A stretch of 30,023 bases of DNA from a virus (IMGVR_UViG_2690316318_000018:1-30023); one strand, 5' to 3'; counted from the first letter of the stretch, positions 16,545-30,023 are shown. A program made the numbers and translations. The notes: generated from the letters alone by a model not told the origin.

Positions 16545-18749
16545 TTACGTGTCGAGAGAAATTTGTGTGCGCAGTTGAATAGGATTCAGAATTGTATATC
16601 GCTGGCGAATAACATTATATAAATCAAAGTCTTTTACCCTTACGCTTATTACCATCGCATATTGCATATCAGGGGCTGAAACTCCCTTAACATGGCGCGA
16701 AGAATCTCGGGCATGATACCGTATATCAAAAACTGGATCGCTTAATAATGTATCAGCACTGAACTTTTTGCTTCTGTGCAAACAAGTTTCCCACTTATGA
16801 CCTTCACTCCTACACTCCCTTTCAGTCTTATACTGGCTTTTTTGACCAAAGAAATCATCTGTATCGGTATCGTCAAGGCCGAATCTTGGGCGGAAAGTTA
16901 CCTGCATACCGGCCCTTGTATAGTTTACTGAATGTTCAGGATCTACTGGGGTTTGAATGCATAAAGTAGCGGTAAGCTCAAATGCTTCGTCAAAGGGAAC
17001 ATCAGGGAATGGGATCGGTGCCCTTAAATATTTATTTTTTGCTAATGAACCATAGTAAATTACTGTAGCAGTATCATTTGGACAATCGATTAAAACGTTA
17101 GGATCCTCACTAAACCGTCCCCAACCGATATGTTCACGCGAATATTTTCTTGATGTTTCAGCATGATGAACAAGCAACGCTTTCAATGCAATGGTGTTCA
17201 ATGGAGTTCCTGATAGAGCCGCAACTCCAGCGGCCGTTCTCAATGCTAATGGAGAGGCATAACTGGTTCCTTGAACTCCAACTATAGAACCAAGCAGAGG
17301 GTTGTAAGTGTAAAAAGGCTCGTCGTCGCTTCCACCAAAAATAACACCATCAGGTTTAACGAATCCGGGGCTTCTGCCTGGCCCAATACAGCTATATGGT
17401 GCCCGCCCCCATTTTTCACCGCTACGATCAGCAGCACCAATCGCTAGCGCGTTTACCATATCGGAAGGAGGTTGTATTCTCGCTGCATCACCGTCCTCAT
17501 TGCCATCATTCCCAACAGCAACAGTAAGTAATATCCCATGCTTAGCACAGATTTGGTCTAAAACAGCAGTCCATACATGAACCTCATCATCACCAATTGG
17601 AAGATGAGGACCAATACTTAGATTAGCGAACTTATAGTCACCACTATCAAGAACGGACTGTATTTTCTTAAGGACATCAAATAAATCCCAATTGCCATTG
17701 TCACCTGATGTCGGTGAAAGAACTCTATAATGATCTACATTCATAAACGGTCTTTTAAAAGAAGGTGCATTTTCCTCGACACGTCCGAATAAGAAAGTGG
17801 ATGTCACTTCATTACCGTGCTGCAATAATAATCCGCTTGTTTCTTTGGTGTCTGGATACACGTATTCCGTAACCCAATTACTCAAGTCAGCTGTCCCCAA
17901 GCCACCATCAAAAATGGCAATACGTTCGGATTCAAGAACAGCTTTAGAATTAGGGAGCTCCGGTGTAACTATATTAGATAACTTTCTGACAATGTTCGGC
18001 TGAGTACACCTGAGAGACGGCATCGGCCGCACAACGCGGATTAATGAAAAATCGAGTGTTTTTTTCATATCTTCAGGTCGCGCGTGTGCAACGATGAAAG
18101 TCAGCCCACCAACTTGGATTCTACTTTTGTAATCAACAGAGACATCATATTGTGCCGCATAGCTAATATAGGCTTTAACGATATCATCGTCTTCAACCCC
18201 AGCATGAAGAACCACTTCAAATTTTATCAAATCACTTTTCGCATGCTCAAAATTGCGTGCTCTCTCTTTTCCTTCAAAAAAGCTAACACTTTCAATTTCG
18301 ATCAAATCCTTTTGTACGCCCTTCGGAGCTGTAGGGGAATTTAAAATTTCCTTAAATCTTATAACGGCATCATCATCACCGCTAACAAACAGTTGCGCCG
18401 TTACTAAGTCCTTATTCTGATCGCACTGACGTGCCGCTTTCCGTGGGCGAATGATTACCTGACGGCTGCCGACATCCCGTAAACCTGTCGCTCTAAGCAA
18501 TCCTTCCGGAAAGTAGCTTTTACCCAAAAACGCTGGGTGTAAAGTTAAATTGAATACACTCTCCCCCCTTGGCTTAGCCGCATCATCCAAACTGCGAAAG
18601 CGTGAGAGTAAAGTATCAATCTCTGGGTTTAAATGCTCCCTTACTTCTTCAAGAGTATAGGGATAGCGCTTACCATCCCTTCCTTTAGGCAAAGGTTCCT
18701 TTTTTGTCAGAACATGACCGTTACCTAAAAGTAAGTTCCTTTCCATCAT
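16545..18749 (-). CDS. Subtilisin-like serine protease (peptidase S8 family) with ~270-aa N-terminal and ~230-aa C-terminal domains of unknown function
   Basis: 734-aa ORF. S8 catalytic motifs in canonical D-H-N-S order: …RIAIFDGGLG… (Asp ~281), …LLQHGNEVTS… (His ~311), …VAVGNDGNE… (oxyanion Asn ~414), …GVQGTSYASP… (Ser ~496). Start overlaps the upstream ATPase stop (ATGA). AT-rich codon usage. Confidence 0.85.
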   Translation of the reverse strand: MMERNLLLGNGHVLTKKEPLPKGRDGKRYPYTLEEVREHLNPEIDTLLSRFRSLDDAAKPRGESVFNLTLHPAFLGKSYFPEGLLRATGLRDVGSRQVIIRPRKAARQCDQNKDLVTAQLFVSGDDDAVIRFKEILNSPTAPKGVQKDLIEIESVSFFEGKERARNFEHAKSDLIKFEVVLHAGVEDDDIVKAYISYAAQYDVSVDYKSRIQVGGLTFIVAHARPEDMKKTLDFSLIRVVRPMPSLRCTQPNIVRKLSNIVTPELPNSKAVLESERIAIFDGGLGTADLSNWVTEYVYPDTKETSGLLLQHGNEVTSTFLFGRVEENAPSFKRPFMNVDHYRVLSPTSGDNGNWDLFDVLKKIQSVLDSGDYKFANLSIGPHLPIGDDEVHVWTAVLDQICAKHGILLTVAVGNDGNEDGDAARIQPPSDMVNALAIGAADRSGEKWGRAPYSCIGPGRSPGFVKPDGVIFGGSDDEPFYTYNPLLGSIVGVQGTSYASPLALRTAAGVAALSGTPLNTIALKALLVHHAETSRKYSREHIGWGRFSEDPNVLIDCPNDTATVIYYGSLAKNKYLRAPIPFPDVPFDEAFELTATLCIQTPVDPEHSVNYTRAGMQVTFRPRFGLDDTDTDDFFGQKSQYKTERECRSEGHKWETCLHRSKKFSADTLLSDPVFDIRYHARDSSRHVKGVSAPDMQYAMVISVRVKDFDLYNVIRQRYTILNPIQLRTQISLDT

Positions 18750-19828
18750 TTAATCCCCCACTTTTGTAATTTATTCGCGATTGTTGGATGTGAAACACCA
18801 ACTAATTCAGCTATCTTCCTATTTGAAAAACCGTCAAAATGATATTTAATTATATTGAGATCATTATCGCTAAACTCATCCAATGAAACCCTCTCCGTAA
18901 TTACGGCTTCTATTAATGAGCTTTCAAATGGAATATTTCTAAGTACCTCATTCTTTTTGGAGAAATTCAAAATACGGTTAATGATGGCAAAGGACATGCC
19001 ATCTAATAATGGTGCAAGTTTTTTAGATAGTTCAGGTTCAATATTATGATTGACTAAATATCTATCTATCAGTTCTACTGATGGCATATTAAATTTAAGG
19101 ATGTGCTCAAATCGACGCCAAACAGCCGGATCTAAGATATCAGGGTGATTAGTCGCAGCAACAAGAAGCGAGGTCGCTGGCCACTCATCTATGGTCTGTA
19201 GGAGTACAGTAACTAAACGTTTTAATTCTCCAACGTCCCTGTCATCATCACGTCTTTTTGCAACAGCATCAAATTCATCAAGCAAAAGGACACATGGTTT
19301 CTCTTTGGCATAATCCATAACGGATTTAATATTATTACCTGTTTTTCCCAAAAGAGAACTCATTACAGATGAGAGATCCAATGTTAAAAGAGGTAAATTT
19401 AACTTTGCAGCAAGCCAATGTGCGGACATTGTTTTGCCTACGCCTGGCGGGCCAGAAAGTAAAACCGTCTTCACAGGTTCAAGACCAGCTTTGAACAAAG
19501 AAACCGCATTCTCTCTTTCGTTAACAATTGACTCCAGCTTCTTTGAGATATCCGTATTCCATACAGGTTCTTCAACAATTGCGTTGACAGATGTTTCCTG
19601 CAAAAGGTTTCGTCTGGAGTCTCCATCCACAGGCATAGGAGCCTTACTAGATGCCCCACGTAATACTGTTCCCTCAGCAACTAACGAAGCCAGCTTAGAA
19701 GCTAAAGCCTCATCATTTTTACGGATGTTGTTAATCATCTTTCTGCATAGGAGTGTAAATGCATTTGCGTTGCCTTTGATGCCTTGCTCGATGAGTTTGA
19801 AAAGTTCATCCTCCCTCACGTTTACCAT
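18746..19828 (-). CDS. Classic-clade AAA ATPase with predicted C-terminal helix-turn-helix
   Basis: 360-aa ORF. Walker A LSGPPGVGKT (~126-133), Walker B VLLLDEFD (~180-187), second region of homology …LLVAATNHPDILDPAVWRRFEH… (sensor-1 Asn, Arg fingers). C-terminal segment …SNRKIAELVGVSHPTIANKLQKWG… resembles a LuxR / sigma-70 region-4 type HTH. Confidence 0.85.
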   Translation of the reverse strand: MVNVREDELFKLIEQGIKGNANAFTLLCRKMINNIRKNDEALASKLASLVAEGTVLRGASSKAPMPVDGDSRRNLLQETSVNAIVEEPVWNTDISKKLESIVNERENAVSLFKAGLEPVKTVLLSGPPGVGKTMSAHWLAAKLNLPLLTLDLSSVMSSLLGKTGNNIKSVMDYAKEKPCVLLLDEFDAVAKRRDDDRDVGELKRLVTVLLQTIDEWPATSLLVAATNHPDILDPAVWRRFEHILKFNMPSVELIDRYLVNHNIEPELSKKLAPLLDGMSFAIINRILNFSKKNEVLRNIPFESSLIEAVITERVSLDEFSDNDLNIIKYHFDGFSNRKIAELVGVSHPTIANKLQKWGIK

Positions 19829-20522: not shown

Positions 20523-21482
20523 TTACTCCTTGTCCATTGCGTACAGCCCATTAACCAGAGCAAACTGTGGCACCCCGTCCGCGATGAAAGTCGCATTAAC
20601 TCCGCAGGCTTCGCGGATAGCGGGTGCCACAATCTCCGCCCCTCCACCGACAACCATCACCCGCCCGTAACCCGAAAAAACCGCCAGCGCGCGGATCACG
20701 CGTTGTTTCAGTGTTTCCTCCTTTTCACGAATAACCGCCATCAGGCTGTCGTAATGCGCGTCATTGTGGATGTGCTGGCGCAGCCAGGCTTCATCATAGC
20801 GATGTTCGATAATGGTATTGGCGATGTGGTGACTGGTGCGCATACCGTTAGTGGCCATCACCGACAGCACGGCATCGGCCATCAGAGAAACGCCTACGTG
20901 TGGATCGCAAAACACCTGGCTGATACCTGCCAGTTGCCCCTGAACCTTTGCCACATCCAGCGTGGTTCCGCCCAAATCCACAATCAGCAGGGATTCAAAC
21001 GGACTCATGTCAGCCAGTGCTTTAAAGCCAGCCGGAATGGATTCAGGCATAACCCGCACGTTACGGATAGTGAATGCTTCGCCGTTCTGGTACTCCACCG
21101 GGCGCATAACGTTCGCTTTTTTGCGGTTGATGTTGGCCATGTCCGGCTGTGCGTTTGTGTCGAAATACTCGCTCAGTGGCAGGGTGACAACCACATCCAC
21201 CTCCTGTGGTGTGATGCCTGATTTGACCAGCGCGTGATGAATGGCAATGACATTCACATCGCTGTATTGGTATTGCGTGTCGGTCGTCTGGACAAAGCGA
21301 TCGCTGACCGGATCAAAACCATAGCGCACGCCATCAAGCATGTAGTTCGCGGGCTGCGTGCCACCGAACGGCGCAGACCATTCCGACTTGAAGCTGTTCG
21401 GGCTGATGGCGTTGCGGCGTTCGCCGTTCTCAGTCCATGCCAGCTTGATGTTGGTGGAGCCGTCGTCGATACAAATTTTCAT
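20523..21482 (-). CDS. parM: ParM/StbA-like actin-family partition ATPase
   Basis: 319-aa ORF. N-terminus MKICIDDGSTNIKLAW…ISPNSFK…YQYSDVNVIAIHHAL…VMPESIPAG…LIVDLGGTTLD… closely parallels plasmid R1 ParM (…FIDDGSTNIKLQW…ISPNSFK…WQYSDVNVVAVHHAL…VMPESIPAG…) as recalled from memory. Confidence 0.85.
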   Translation of the reverse strand: MKICIDDGSTNIKLAWTENGERRNAISPNSFKSEWSAPFGGTQPANYMLDGVRYGFDPVSDRFVQTTDTQYQYSDVNVIAIHHALVKSGITPQEVDVVVTLPLSEYFDTNAQPDMANINRKKANVMRPVEYQNGEAFTIRNVRVMPESIPAGFKALADMSPFESLLIVDLGGTTLDVAKVQGQLAGISQVFCDPHVGVSLMADAVLSVMATNGMRTSHHIANTIIEHRYDEAWLRQHIHNDAHYDSLMAVIREKEETLKQRVIRALAVFSGYGRVMVVGGGAEIVAPAIREACGVNATFIADGVPQFALVNGLYAMDKE

Positions 21483-25088: not shown

Positions 25089-25265
25089 GGTGTGGCCTCT
25101 TTGCTCGGTGATAGAAATAACTCACCATCCAGAGTTGAGAATCTCGGGGTGGCGAGACGTACAGGGTTCTCAACACCGGAGAGCAAAGAATCCGGCCCGA
25201 CCGAAGTCGGCCCCGTACGCCCCGCCATAATTCTGACGCGAAAAAGACGTGGCAATACAGTACGC

Positions 25266-25290
25266 ACAAAAAAACCGCTTGCGCGGTTAT
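25266..25290 (-). terminator. Rho-independent terminator (minus strand) downstream of the 99-aa gene
   Basis: Minus-strand reading AACCGC-GCAA-GCGGTT followed by TTTTTTTGTG. Confidence 0.45.
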
Positions 25291-25358
25291 GCGCTTTGCT
25301 CTGTATCGGGTTGAGAATCCCGGCACCCGTTTTATGAGGTGCAGCGGAAATGTAACCT

Positions 25359-26623: not shown

Positions 26624-27259
26624 TTAATCTGCTTTCTGTATTTCAGCTTCTGAATCCATACAAATAATTTCGATATAGGGTTCATCGCCATTAACCTGGC
26701 GTGCCTTTTCAGCTTCGCTGATGATTTCTCGTACGGTCTGGTACGGAAGTTCCACAAGCAGTCGCGTGCCGTTCAGATAAACGTAAGTGGCTTCGTCGGC
26801 TCCGTTTTTACCCGCCGGAGTCACTCCGTCAATAGCGGATGCACGTAATAACAGTTCACCGCGAAAATCAATAAAACGGATAAATACACCTTGTGCATGG
26901 TCTTTGGTCATAAAGCACCTGTTATAAATCAGCCTGTTTAATGAAATTCTGTCCGCGCAGCAGACGATCAACTGGCGTAGCGCTTCGTACAATGTGAAAT
27001 CCTGCCCAAACTGATTGTCGCCACAGCTCAATGCAAAAATGCGGTTTCCGGTAAACGGATTGCGTGGGCATTTGTGGATCACGATTCCAGCTTTCTCAAT
27101 CAGCCAGGCGTGCTCGCCGATTTGTTTTACTGGGTAGCCATCCGGCGTTGCGTGTGTATCACTCAGGCTGTAGCGGATGTTGCTGCGTGATGCACTGGTA
27201 GTGAAACGGTTAGCGTGGCGTTCTGCTCCGGTACGAAAATTACGGCGTTGCTTCAGCAT
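26624..27259 (-). CDS. Hypothetical early protein (211 aa) at the position of P2 orf78/B
   Basis: First large ORF after the Cox-like gene; no motif confidently recognised. Confidence 0.5.
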   Translation of the reverse strand: MLKQRRNFRTGAERHANRFTTSASRSNIRYSLSDTHATPDGYPVKQIGEHAWLIEKAGIVIHKCPRNPFTGNRIFALSCGDNQFGQDFTLYEALRQLIVCCADRISLNRLIYNRCFMTKDHAQGVFIRFIDFRGELLLRASAIDGVTPAGKNGADEATYVYLNGTRLLVELPYQTVREIISEAEKARQVNGDEPYIEIICMDSEAEIQKAD

Positions 27260-27273
27260 AAAATGACACCTCG

Positions 27274-27552
27274 TTATTTTGTCATCTGCACGTATTTCTC
27301 TGCGTTTCTGATGGTTTTCAGGAAAATTGCGAAGAGATTTACTGTACGTTTTGAGTTTTTTTCTTCTTGGTTGATGGGAAGGGCTGCTCTGTCAGCCTGC
27401 CTTTTCACTGCATTAACAGTTTGATTGGTACGCTTCGCGTAATCTTTCAGGCTTTCTTCGAGTACCGGTAATCCATGCTCATCGCGGTATGGGTAGAACG
27501 CCGCCAAACGCTCAAAATCCGCTTGCTCGTATGTGTTCAAGAGCTTTGTCAT
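27274..27552 (-). CDS. cox: Cox/Apl-like excisionase-type regulator (HTH)
   Basis: 92-aa ORF divergent from the C repressor gene. Central segment …DYAKRTNQTVNAVKRQADRAALP… follows the P2 Cox HTH pattern (…AKLIGKSTGAVRRMIDKGKLP…) as I recall it. Confidence 0.6.
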   Translation of the reverse strand: MTKLLNTYEQADFERLAAFYPYRDEHGLPVLEESLKDYAKRTNQTVNAVKRQADRAALPINQEEKNSKRTVNLFAIFLKTIRNAEKYVQMTK

Positions 27553-27643
27553 GATGTGATAACCTGTTCAGTCTGTGGTTATTTGTTGCTAAAAGTCGTC
27601 TCTAGGCGACTTTTAGGGTTAATTTAGTCGTCTGGAGACCACC
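27553..27643. promoter_or_regulatory. Divergent early/repressor promoter-operator region (immunity switch)
   Basis: 91-bp interval between the divergent cox-like and C genes. 8-bp direct repeats AGTCGTCT at 27594 and 27626, and an 8-bp perfect inverted repeat AAAAGTCG-N8-CGACTTTT at 27591..27614. Confidence 0.55.
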
Positions 27644-27955
27644 ATGTCAAGTGGGTACGAAAAAAAACTGAAAGAGATACGGAAAAGTGAAGGGTTAACT
27701 CAAGCTGAGTTTGCAGATGTTACTGGGATAAATCTCGGAACTATAAAGAATTATGAGAGCGGTAAAAGAGAGGTTGGTTTAAGCGTTGTTGATCGCGTAA
27801 TTAATTCTAAGGATTTCGAAAAATACACTATATGGCTTATGACGGGAAAAACAAATGAGGCTGCTGGGCAGATCAGTCCCTCTCTCTCCCCTGATGGGCC
27901 AGAAAACACATCGTCTTCTCAAAAATCCCGCAAGACTGGTACACAGCCCGGCTAA
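27644..27955 (+). CDS. C: Immunity repressor C (P2 C-type HTH repressor)
   Basis: 103-aa ORF. …RKSEGLTQAEFADVTGINLGTIKNYESGKR…KYTIWLMTGKT…GQISPSL… parallels P2 C (…RKSEYLSRQQLADLTGVPYGTLSYYESGRS…KYTLWFMTNQ…GQIAPAL…) as recalled. Confidence 0.85.
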   Translation: MSSGYEKKLKEIRKSEGLTQAEFADVTGINLGTIKNYESGKREVGLSVVDRVINSKDFEKYTIWLMTGKTNEAAGQISPSLSPDGPENTSSSQKSRKTGTQPG

Positions 27956-28004
27956 TCATGGAACGCTGGGGGCATGGTGGTCTTGTAACGCTGGGGTTTC
28001 ACGA

Positions 28005-28982
28005 ATGAGCATAAAATCAATTCCGGGAGGGTATCTTCTTGACATGCGCCCGGAGGGGCGTAAAGGCAAACGCATTCGTAAAAAATTTAAAACGAAATCG
28101 GATGCAGTTTTATATGAGCGGTGGGTGCTGGCGCAACAGCATAACAATGAGTGGAAAGGAAACTCTATTGATCGCCGTCCTCTGTCAGTGCTTATTGACT
28201 TGTGGTGGAAATACCACGGCCAGCTAATGAAGTCAGGGCATAACACGCGCCTTAAATTGCTGCGCTTGAGTGAGGCAATGGATGACCCGTGCGTGCATAA
28301 ACTTAATACAACGATGCTCACCGAGCTACGTGTGTCCAGGATAGAGCAGGGGATACAGCCCAGCACCATAAATCGAGAGATTGGGGCGTTAAGCGCGATG
28401 TTTACCGCACTCATCTCATCCGGCCATTTTCTTAACGATAACCCCGTTCAAGGCCTTAAAGGAATGAAGGTTAACGAGCGCGAAATGGGATACCTGAGTA
28501 AGTCTGAATGTGTTCAGTTGCTGGATGCACTGGCTGAAAATCCCGATGAACGGCTGGCTGTCGAAATCCTTCTGTCGACCGGGGCGCGATGGGGCGAGGT
28601 AGCGGCACTGGAGCAGCGCCGTGTTCTTCATTGTCGAATCACTTTTTCAAAAACGAAGAACAGTAAAAACCGCACTGTCCCGATCTCCGAAAATCTGTTT
28701 GAAAAGATCAAAAAACGGGGCGGGAAACTAGTGTTTCCAACGCTGGATTATCCATTGGTTCGCGATGTCATCAAAACGGTCGCACCTGATGTTCCTGACG
28801 GCCAGGCTGTTCATGCGCTGCGCCACACCTTCGCCAGTCATTTCATGATGAACGGCGGTAATATTCTGACGCTCCAGAAAATTCTGGGGCACGCAAAGAT
28901 TCAGACAACGATGATTTATGCCCATCTTGCGCCGGATTACCTGCAGGATGCGGTGAGGTTTAATCCCTTGGGAGGAATGTAA
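28005..28982 (+). CDS. int: Tyrosine integrase (P2 Int family)
   Basis: The track ORF is overextended; ATG at 28005 gives 325 aa. C-terminal catalytic motifs …HALRHTFASHF… and …LGHAKIQTTMIYAHL… (R…HxxR…Y). Confidence 0.9.
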   Translation: MSIKSIPGGYLLDMRPEGRKGKRIRKKFKTKSDAVLYERWVLAQQHNNEWKGNSIDRRPLSVLIDLWWKYHGQLMKSGHNTRLKLLRLSEAMDDPCVHKLNTTMLTELRVSRIEQGIQPSTINREIGALSAMFTALISSGHFLNDNPVQGLKGMKVNEREMGYLSKSECVQLLDALAENPDERLAVEILLSTGARWGEVAALEQRRVLHCRITFSKTKNSKNRTVPISENLFEKIKKRGGKLVFPTLDYPLVRDVIKTVAPDVPDGQAVHALRHTFASHFMMNGGNILTLQKILGHAKIQTTMIYAHLAPDYLQDAVRFNPLGGM

Positions 28983-28984
28983 CT

Positions 28985-29485
28985 ATGGAAATAAAAAAAC
29001 CTACAAAAAAAGAGTTATATGACTATTTACTATCGAAATATATAGAAGATAAATGCAAAGAAGAAGCTGATGAAATCAATAAGAAGTCGATGAGTCGTGT
29101 CAATAAACATAAGGAGCGGCTGATGGAGATTACGCCAGAAATCTTCTTCCGTTTCTTGTCTGAGAAGGAGGTTTCCAGTGTCTGCCCTTCATGTGGATCG
29201 TCTCGATTATCTGTGCCTGAAAGTATGGATCTTTGCTGGGATAAAAATAAGAAACCAGAAAATTTTAACAATCTACCCTTGGAGGAGCAGAGTGAGTTAA
29301 TTAAAGAGAACATAAAGCATTATGTATCTTATACTTTTTTGGGTGATGTTAAGAGCATACCTGATATGCGCAAAACTTATTACACGCTGCATTGCCTGAA
29401 TTGTGGTTACCTGAGCCTTTACCGTACGTCTGCGGTGCTGAAGTGGTTGGAGAAAGACAAAGCACAGGATGGTGAAAATGGGTAA
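28985..29485 (+). CDS. Hypothetical Lys-rich protein with two Cys pairs (possible zinc ribbon), AT-rich cargo
   Basis: 166-aa ORF starting 3 nt after the int stop; CPSCGS … CLNCGY; strongly AT-rich codon usage unlike the phage backbone. Confidence 0.55.
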   Translation: MEIKKPTKKELYDYLLSKYIEDKCKEEADEINKKSMSRVNKHKERLMEITPEIFFRFLSEKEVSSVCPSCGSSRLSVPESMDLCWDKNKKPENFNNLPLEEQSELIKENIKHYVSYTFLGDVKSIPDMRKTYYTLHCLNCGYLSLYRTSAVLKWLEKDKAQDGENG

Positions 29486-30023
29486 TGTAGCAAGAAACCT
29501 GTTCGGTAATTCAGCAGGTAGTATGTCGCATTCTGAGCGTGATGTGCTTTATCATGGCGGCGATGGCGGCAGTAGTGGAGGTGGAATGTCAGATAAACTT
29601 GAAAGGCGAATTGAGCGACTCGAAAGTGATTTATCGCTAACAAGAAACGACCTTGCGACGCTTGCTGAACGCACTACAAACCTCTCAACCAAAGCCGATG
29701 TTGGTGAGGTGAAGGGTGAGCTCAAAGCAGACATTGCTCATCTGAAAGGTGAGCTTGAATGCGATATTGCGAATCTGAAAGGTGAGCTTAAATCTGATAC
29801 AGCTAATCTGAAAGAGCAGCTCAAATCAGACATTAACAGCCTGAAGGGTGAGCTTACCGAAGCGATGGATAAACGCTTTGACAAGATTATGGATGAGATG
29901 AATCGGCGGTTTGACAAGGTTGATGATAATACGAAGTGGCGTTGGAGTGGCATTATTGTGCCAGTGTGCACAACCATTTTCACGGCGGCGGTCGCGTATT
30001 TTGTTGCTAAATTTGTTGGCTGA
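29469..30023 (+). CDS. Hypothetical tail-anchored coiled-coil membrane protein with five tandem 11-residue repeats
   Basis: 184-aa ORF overlapping the upstream ORF by 17 nt. Gly/Ser-rich linker, then repeats …VGEVKGELKAD / IAHLKGELECD / IANLKGELKSD / TANLKEQLKSD / INSLKGELTEA…, then a single C-terminal TM helix (WSGIIVPVCTTIFTAAVAYFVAKFV). Ends at the window edge. Confidence 0.55.
   Translation: MVKMGNVARNLFGNSAGSMSHSERDVLYHGGDGGSSGGGMSDKLERRIERLESDLSLTRNDLATLAERTTNLSTKADVGEVKGELKADIAHLKGELECDIANLKGELKSDTANLKEQLKSDINSLKGELTEAMDKRFDKIMDEMNRRFDKVDDNTKWRWSGIIVPVCTTIFTAAVAYFVAKFVG

Follow-up and report, generated by a model that had tools for sequence, protein, structure and literature searches.

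The sequence analyzed here is a 30,023-nt stretch of viral DNA (IMGVR_UViG_2690316318_000018; hereafter, the window), and its right end raises the question of what is encoded by two overlapping genes lying immediately downstream of a P2-type integrase gene, and of what they might do for the prophages that carry them.

Gene Organization at the Right End of the Window

In this region, the following genes were identified:

27644..27955, plus strand: C-type repressor of P2, 103 aa (Pfam HTH_3, E-value = 2 × 10−10; the same gene is RefSeq-annotated in a 99.6%-identical prophage)
28005..28982, plus strand: P2-type tyrosine integrase (int), 325 aa (Pfam Int_N, E-value = 2 × 10−28; Phage_integrase, E-value = 6 × 10−20), with the start set at 28005
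28985..29485, plus strand: ORF1, acidic zinc-ribbon-type protein, 166 aa, phrog_4293
29478..30023, plus strand: ORF2, long form, 181 aa, comprising an N-terminal peptide (N-peptide), a Gly-rich linker, a DUF1640-like coiled coil, and a C-terminal membrane anchor

The C repressor gene is the head of a rightward string of lysogenic genes. The ATG of ORF1 lies 2 nt past the end of int (28982), and the stop of ORF2 is the final codon of the window (30023), in agreement with a preliminary description of this DNA, which had noted two overlapping plus-strand frames running from int to the window edge. The GC content of ORF1 and ORF2 was 0.381 and 0.460, respectively, compared with 0.515 for the window and 0.558 for the structural genes. 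Since the C and int genes were also below the backbone value (0.423 and 0.494, respectively), the A/T-richness that had been ascribed to both ORFs is clear for ORF1 and mild for ORF2.

The preliminary description had also proposed that the pair is a moron located between int and the attachment site, the latter to be sought past position 30023. Both ends of an O157 prophage that is 99.6% identical carried the att core GGCCGCTCTGCGGCCTTTTTTCTTT (25 bp; the ihfA terminator), with one copy about 110 bp past the end of ORF2, i.e., outside the window. The two genes therefore belong to the phage and form a cargo flanked by int and att; their base composition differs from that of the backbone. The prophage of the window carries IetAS at the canonical hotspot and hok/gef at the opposite att end. 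A 14-nt direct repeat seen around the cassette in one strain was absent from the other alleles and was attributed to chance or to a local feature. A simple consensus scan, which missed Pc itself on the plus strand, revealed no promoter-like plus-strand site between C and ORF2, and the att-core hairpin was the sole plus-strand terminator-like site before btuC. On these grounds, a single C–int–ORF1–ORF2 transcript would be compatible with the scan. No RNA family was detected by Rfam in the 27500–30023 interval. Candidate antisense ORFs were present in this region, for example, at 29023–29313 on the minus strand.

Allelic Diversity of the Int–Att Slot in E. coli

Among 5426 complete E. coli genomes, 300 contained this integrase, and in approximately 294 of them it was at least 95% identical. 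The allele of the pair present in the window was found in 23 of the 300 genomes. The second allele (L003), detected in 16 genomes, had a strongly diverged ORF1 (about 132 aa), which is unannotated in RefSeq, as well as another N-peptide and the same stalk of ORF2, whereas the third allele (86 genomes) had an ORF1 of 120 aa and an ORF2 of 145 aa. In 159 genomes, the slot was occupied by an alternative cargo, namely, a single unrelated 131-aa gene belonging to phrog_14142. Consequently, some allele of the pair was present in about 125 of the 300 genomes, with at least three diverged alleles, and the pair was missing from 53% of the prophages with the same integrase. The edges of the slot were conserved, with int on one side and a 108-bp att arm on the other, and four or more alternative contents were found between them. 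Further alleles were detected in Salmonella and in metagenomes. It had been considered earlier that the pair could be a core component of all P2-like phages; the allele counts (23, 16, and 86 versus 159 with other cargo) rule out this status. Thus, lying inside the att sites, being variable, and having an atypical GC content, the pair is cargo (a moron) of P2-like prophages. The int–att interval of P2-like prophages was described as a minor defense hotspot containing 3% of P2 systems in a 2026 survey (PMC13586616).

Distribution in Other Phages

The profile search with ORF1 yielded 91 cluster representatives at E-value ≤ 10−3 among 1.84 billion; relatives of ORF1 formed 18 clusters at 90% identity, and ORF2 homologues formed 45 clusters. 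At all 17 diverged loci (17/17), an ORF2-like gene followed the ORF1 homologue on the same strand. The common layout of ORF2 at these loci included a variable N-peptide of 20–45 aa, a run rich in Gly/Asp that terminates in Met, a helix of the LEKRVERLE type, the motif FATKxD (at most loci), a coiled coil of variable length, and a TM segment at or near the C terminus. A scan with a narrower alignment and one genome per species identified two loci.

The pair was located between the cI-like repressor gene and int in a 186-like prophage, directly 3′ of cI in Rac-like lambdoid prophages, and next to ogr in a P2-like prophage of Providencia. In the Salmonella phage SPN3UB (gp24/gp25), as well as in related Salmonella and Klebsiella phages, it was present in moron islands among tail genes, and in a Mu-like phage, it was immediately upstream of the holin and SLT endolysin genes. 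Among lambdoid relatives sharing this cI, HicAB and other genes could occupy the slot instead; another same-cI relative had a distant relative of ORF1 (hhalign 95.7%) with two multi-TM proteins, and a further one had an unrelated 101-aa protein together with the same coiled-coil chassis. The lambdoid variant of ORF2 carried a (PA)n extension beyond the TM segment. A homologue was found in 14 phage records and in 1 of 72,556 plasmids, and no match to the cassette was obtained by megablast in 50,697 phage records. All the contexts found were those of temperate phages. At the level of sequence comparison, these data show ORF1–ORF2 to be a conserved, phage-restricted, horizontally exchanged accessory module of temperate enterobacterial phages.

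ORF1 as a Zinc-Ribbon-Type Protein

Two CxxC motifs of ORF1 had been pointed out as suggestive of a zinc ribbon:

29183..29194, plus strand: first CxxC knuckle, CPSC (C67/C70), invariant in 30 diverse homologues
29393..29404, plus strand: second CxxC knuckle, CLNC within HCLNCG (C137/C140), invariant in the same number of diverse homologues

The four cysteines as well as W154 were invariant across the 30 homologues, with identity down to 20%, and strands were adjacent to both CxxC motifs in the AF2 model. Thus, ORF1 has the four cysteines in two knuckles by which a zinc ribbon is recognized in sequence and model, and metal binding is putative. The fold check proposed in the preliminary description gave no significant match for ORF1, the matches to TFIIS, Rpp21, and Rpb9-type ribbons all being weak; comparison of the ORF1 and ORF2 sequences with the PDB revealed nothing under an E-value of 0.09.

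ORF1 matched phrog_4293, a family of unassigned function, at positions 4–121 of the 124 in the profile (E-value = 1.2 × 10−21). Four diverged ORF1 homologues matched the same family with E-values from 1 × 10−15 to 3 × 10−34, as did every member tested. The P2-type members, including ORF1, differ by an additional N-terminal helix (residues 8–46). The size of ORF1-type proteins ranged from 120 to 166 aa, and their pI ranged from 5.0 to 6.8.

Start, Stalk, and Anchor of ORF2

The start of ORF2 is most likely at 29478 (MGNVARN..., 181 aa), since ORF1 and ORF2 then overlap by 8 nt (ATGGGTAA), and an overlap of this size, in the form ATGnnTAA or ATGAnTGA, was found in most of the diverged loci. The overlap also implies that the two genes are translationally coupled, as judged from its recurrence. 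A start at 29469 was disfavored by the same start/stop arrangement. The following elements were distinguished in the stalk and anchor:

29682..29699, plus strand: LSTKAD, a DUF1640-type beta-layer motif opening the stalk (ORF2 residues 69–74)
29710..29834, plus strand: 33-nt tandem repeat, 3.8 copies, encoding 11-residue (hendecad) units LKGELKxDIAx (TRF period 33, score 122)
29946..30008, plus strand: C-terminal transmembrane anchor, approximately residues 157–177 (hydropathy maximum; AF2 helix 150–180)

In the AF2 model, a long helix (residues 37–146) was followed by a second one (residues 150–180), and W154 and P162 were conserved. The highest Kyte–Doolittle value over a 19-aa window (2.14) was at the C terminus, with just 3–4 residues past the anchor. 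These data bear out the earlier view of ORF2 as a tail-anchored coiled-coil protein. The stalk consists of 11-residue units, the number of which varies by allele, and therefore the lengths of ORF2 homologues change in steps of 11 aa (181, 170, 159, and 148 aa). The consensus of the beta-layer in DUF1640 stalks is [aliphatic]-A-T-K-[polar]-[DE] (Hartmann et al. 2016, PMC4786415); LSTKAD fits it in a relaxed form, whereas FATKSD and FATKAD of the allelic partners fit it exactly. The ORF2 partner at locus L015 contained six tandem 9-residue repeats of the ATKADLQ type.

N-Peptide and Candidate Internal Start of ORF2

The N-terminal part of ORF2 and a candidate second start were represented by the following elements:

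29478..29585, plus strand: N-peptide and Gly/Asp-rich linker, residues 1–36, predicted to be disordered
29541..29552, plus strand: DVLY, an instance of D-[VFY]-[PLTI]-x within the N-peptide that may serve for docking
29577..29588, plus strand: internal SD-like GGAGG (Gly codons GGA GGT) plus the invariant ATG of Met37, considered a candidate for a second start
29586..30023, plus strand: putative short form of ORF2, 145 aa, coiled coil and anchor only (the AF2 helix starts exactly at Met37, and the segment is swapped as a unit)

Residues 1–36 were non-helical in the AF2 model, with pLDDT < 50 for residues 1–31. The frame of the N-peptide was free of stops at 17 of the 17 loci, whereas the other two frames contained 37 and 91 stops. 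The motif D-[VFY]-[PLTI]-x, a pattern derived post hoc from the same sequences, occurred in 13 of the 17 N-peptides, against 0.5 expected from shuffles. At 15 of the 17 loci, GGAGG or GGGGG was located at position −12 or −9 of the ATG that directly follows the Gly-rich run, with predicted anti-SD duplex energies at the internal ATG from −8.4 to −13.3 kcal/mol. The rare codon GGA accounted for 23 of the 93 Gly codons in the linker compared with 4 of 84 elsewhere in ORF2 (Fisher p = 2.5 × 10−4). Since an internal GGAGG–ATG is combined with an upstream frame that is stop-free at all 17 loci, ORF2 may be produced in two isoforms, long and short. Alternatively, the internal SD–ATG could be the true start of ORF2 or a by-product of the Gly codons. 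RefSeq/PGAP places the start of ORF2 at this internal Met (29586, 145 aa), that is, it gives the short form only.

Modular Exchange within the Pair

Comparison of the window with the second allele (L003) revealed an identity of 22% for ORF1, 17% for the N-peptide, and 97% for the remaining part of ORF2, with a breakpoint at position 29573 at the DNA level (megablast). For phage SPN3UB (L041) and phage 29485 (L043), the corresponding values were 90%, 61%, and 18%. These two reciprocal mosaics place an exchange boundary at the position of the Gly run and Met, and the canonical GGAGG–ATG lies exactly at this boundary. Comparison of the aligned segments thus shows that ORF1 and the N-peptide are swapped jointly, and the coiled coil and anchor are swapped separately. 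Since ORF1 and the N-peptide travel together, the mosaicism, on which this reading is based, suggests that ORF1 may bind the N-peptide of ORF2. Across the loci, the correlation between the identities of ORF1 and the N-peptide was weak (rho = 0.18, p = 0.05).

Comparison with Known Families and Defense Systems

The score of ORF2 against DUF1640 (PF07798) was 24.2 bits (184-aa form scored), below the gathering cut-off of 33.5, and the ORF2 partners at other loci had scores of 21.5–25.2 bits. In NCBI, homologues of ORF2 bear the name "DUF1640 domain-containing" or "CCDC90 family", and precomputed tables list the family for 99%-identical proteins. ORF2 has in common with DUF1640/CCDC90 proteins (MCUR1 and CCDC90B) a coiled-coil stalk, a C-terminal TM segment, and an ATK-type motif opening the stalk. 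However, it has no N-terminal head, residues 1–36 being a disordered peptide with a Gly linker, and it differs by a variable number of 11-residue stalk repeats and by a constant upstream partner gene. Because of the sub-threshold Pfam score and the lack of a head domain, ORF2 is considered to resemble DUF1640 weakly, in sequence and model, and not to be a clean member of this family. To our knowledge, DUF1640 has no established function in bacteria. The preliminary description had considered that both proteins might be assigned to a characterized non-defense family; with phrog_4293 for ORF1 and a weak DUF1640-like character for ORF2, this was not the case.

The search for known defense systems in PADLOC-DB 2.0, also proposed earlier, yielded for ORF1 only DUF3800_VII (E-value = 0.005) and for ORF2 only matches of the coiled-coil region to LmuB, ZorA, and LeoBC (E-value ≥ 1.6 × 10−5). 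Among the diverged alleles, no PADLOC matches were obtained, except for coiled-coil ones (LmuB and LeoC) for the ORF2 partner at L015. In general, PADLOC, NCBIfam, and Pfam revealed no above-threshold match for either protein, and the PADLOC and NCBIfam matches corresponded to coiled-coil noise. The Gifsy defense gene gipd474 encodes an ATPase domain. In the literature, no functional study was found on the ORF1 and ORF2 proteins or on DUF1640 in phages. The pairing of ORF1 with ORF2 is previously undescribed, although its theme, namely, prophage cargo composed of a soluble partner and a membrane protein, is known.

Proposed Function and Alternatives

The rexA and rexB genes of phage lambda are located directly downstream of cI; RexA is a protein of 279 aa, and RexB has four TM segments. 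Like this system, the pair consists of two accessory genes placed for co-transcription with a repressor gene, one encoding a soluble and the other an inner-membrane protein, and in lambdoid relatives, ORF1–ORF2 occupy the slot directly after cI. At the same time, no sequence similarity to RexA/RexB was found, there was no Rex model among the PADLOC matches, and the proteins differ in that ORF2 combines a long coiled coil with a single anchor at the C terminus and ORF1-type proteins are zinc-ribbon proteins of 120–166 aa.

We tentatively favor, while holding it somewhat short of probable, the reading in which the pair is a lysogen-expressed adaptor and membrane effector, presumably serving phage exclusion or abortive infection. 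According to this scheme, the pair would be transcribed together with the repressor in the lysogen, and ORF1, an adaptor or sensor in the cytoplasm, would dock onto the N-peptide carried by the long isoform of ORF2. ORF2 itself would be an inner-membrane effector, probably trimeric, whose activity would be set by the ratio of the long and short isoforms and by ORF1; upon a signal from a superinfecting phage, ORF2 would perturb the membrane, and the infection would be aborted or excluded. The resemblance to RexA/RexB would be one of logic and not of sequence. This function is inferred from the location of the pair in slots of lysogen-expressed exclusion genes (after cI, between cI and int, and in the P2 int–att hotspot), as well as from the diversity of alleles, the constant pairing of the genes, their restriction to phages, the modular exchange, and the candidate dual start. 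The positions before the holin and endolysin genes in the Mu-like phage and among the tail genes in siphoviruses, which allow for late expression, count against exclusion, as does the presence of the pair in a prophage already possessing IetAS at the canonical hotspot. It is a more doubtful proposition that the module represents a new widespread class of prophage exclusion or Abi systems, in which a zinc-ribbon sensor would be tethered to a two-isoform trimeric coiled coil of the DUF1640 type and P2-like, 186-like, lambdoid, Mu-like, and siphoviral temperate phages would exchange the sensor unit and the membrane unit separately.

Dual starts are a hallmark of holin/antiholin pairs of the lambda S107/S105 type, and ORF2, like these, is a small phage membrane protein with a candidate in-frame second start possessing its own SD. 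The pair could accordingly be an accessory of lysis timing, with an XhlA-like or holin/antiholin-like ORF2, the isoforms of which, together with ORF1, would tune the firing of the holin after induction. The dual-start-like GGAGG–ATG, the weak matches to Pfam XhlA and to PHROGs of holins and holin/antiholin proteins, the coiled coil with a C-terminal TM segment as in XhlA of PBSX, and the gene order in the Mu-like phage (pair, holin, SLT endolysin), which is like xhlA–xhlB–xlyA, agree with such a role. However, the holin and XhlA matches were far under the family cut-offs, and the isoforms of S105/S107 differ by 2 residues, whereas those of ORF2 would differ by 36. ORF2 also departs from class I and II holins, which have two or three TM segments, by its one TM segment and by its location outside the lysis cassette in 5 of the 6 phage contexts, including the P2-like, 186-like, and lambdoid ones, and in having a single C-terminal anchor with hardly any periplasmic portion, it differs from the holin classes known so far. 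P2-like phages carry the pair in the lysogenic string, distant from the lysis cassette, and since it is missing from 53% of the same-integrase prophages, it is not needed for lysis; we therefore regard a lysis-timing role as unlikely.

The tight coupling of the genes with their conserved overlap, the presence of HicAB in the equivalent lambdoid slot and of hok/gef at the other att end, and the independent exchangeability of the small membrane protein would also be in line with an addiction or stress module of the toxin–antitoxin (TA) kind. Here, the short form of ORF2 would be a membrane toxin neutralized by ORF1 and the long isoform, and it would stabilize the prophage or stop growth under stress with no specific anti-phage role. 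This seems improbable to us, because neither protein is similar to known TA families and because ORF2 (145–181 aa), with its elaborate stalk of variable length, is unlike small type I toxins. Moreover, many TA modules prove to be abortive-infection systems, and therefore the TA-like reading overlaps with the exclusion and abortive-infection one.

A block of phage entry, in which ORF2 would prevent injection of the incoming DNA at the inner membrane, is in our estimation very unlikely. The predicted inner-membrane location of ORF2 and the slots of the pair in immunity regions (in the Rac prophage, the equivalent region contains sieB) are consistent with it, and the (PA)n extension of the lambdoid variant would be periplasmic. 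But only 3–4 residues follow the anchor of the window ORF2, so that almost nothing of it would be exposed to the periplasm, and an intracellular mode of action is indicated by the long stalk and the conserved partner, both of them cytoplasmic. Little credence is given to host-directed conversion, i.e., a membrane scaffold altering host physiology, for example, by tethering ribosomes or proteins as tail-anchored ElaB/YqjD do, with no relation to phage conflict: the tail-anchored architecture and the scaffold role of the mitochondrial DUF1640 relatives MCUR1 and CCDC90B (described as scaffold factors in PMC7519068) favor it, but all members of the family found were in the context of temperate phages, and the rapid turnover of alleles and modular swapping are more in keeping with conflict genes than with a scaffold of the housekeeping type. 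The earlier suggestion of lysogenic-conversion cargo in the sense of virulence received no support.

Significance of the Module

Counting only the int–att site, an allele of the module is present in approximately 125 of the 5426 complete E. coli genomes (2.3%). Salmonella, Klebsiella, Enterobacter, and Providencia contain additional alleles, located in prophages of the lambdoid, 186-like, Mu-like, and siphoviral types, yet neither protein has a function, structure, or defense-database entry. The module combines location in exclusion-gene slots, turnover of alleles, and shuffling in the style of sensor/effector systems, and it has a possible in-frame second start that would divide the putative adaptor-binding peptide from the membrane part. 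It also presents an annotation problem, in that RefSeq cuts ORF2 to the internal Met and omits one allele of ORF1. If the pair is not protective, it is one more prophage moron. If it is protective, it would be a new system for defense catalogues and would provide the first function for bacterial DUF1640 proteins, and the status of the int–att interval of P2-like prophages as a true cargo hotspot would be confirmed.

Other genes and early-region RNA matches of the prophage

The classical P2 defence hotspot, flanked by the replication gene gpA and the portal gene, contained a two-gene block with a low GC content (0.415), encoding IetA, an AAA ATPase of 359 aa (PADLOC E = 4e-89), and IetS, an S8 subtilase of 733 aa (PADLOC E = 7e-41). 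A gene encoding a ParM-like actin, an unusual cargo in an integrated P2-like prophage, was placed between IetAS and gpA.

Further features of the window
16545-19828, minus strand: IetA and IetS two-gene block (PADLOC)
20523-21482, minus strand: ParM-like actin gene (StbA_N, E = 1e-81; ParM_N, E = 6e-68)
25145-25232, minus strand: C4 antisense RNA (Rfam match, 78.5 bits)
25268-25342, minus strand: isrK (Rfam match, 63.1 bits)
26624-27259, minus strand: DUF4761 gene (211 aa; Pfam domain at residues 7-95)

The C4 antisense RNA and isrK matches adjoined each other in the early region, close to a gene named 'derepression protein' in the annotation of relatives; this arrangement suggests an antirepressor under P1/P7-style antisense control. 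The product of the DUF4761 gene was 211 aa long, whereas a protein of 112 aa was annotated at the same position in relatives; the longer protein may represent a C-terminal extension or a fusion.

Annotation and variation of the ORF1-ORF2 module

In the second allele of the module (16 genomes), approximately 480 nt located 3' of int had no RefSeq annotation; this interval contained a clear gene of the ORF1 (zinc-ribbon protein) family. The start of ORF2 in RefSeq corresponded to the internal Met in every allele.

Module genes in the compared loci
L003, 5507-5920, and L046, 3965-4378 (second allele): unannotated ORF1-family gene (about 132 aa, both CxxC motifs)
L039, 4377-4931; L040, 4377-4907; L049, 3833-4486 (lambdoid): membrane partner with a Pro-Ala run
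L015, 4431-5063 (186-like prophage): membrane partner with six tandem 9-residue repeats of the ATKADLQ type
L047, 4093-5220: distant ORF1 relative (hhalign 95.7%, E = 1e-8) and two membrane-protein genes

In the lambdoid membrane partners, the Pro-Ala repeats were located C-terminal to the transmembrane segment, differed in length among strains (19 repeats in L039 and 15 in L040) and would form a rigid extension in the periplasm; P2-type partners had no such extension. Regarding the repeats of the 186-like prophage partner, alpha/beta coiled coils have been reported to arise from this insertion pattern (PMC4786415). In L047, the distant ORF1 relative (107 aa) was followed by two multi-pass membrane proteins, with no coiled-coil anchor; therefore, other membrane partners can be combined with the zinc-ribbon protein.
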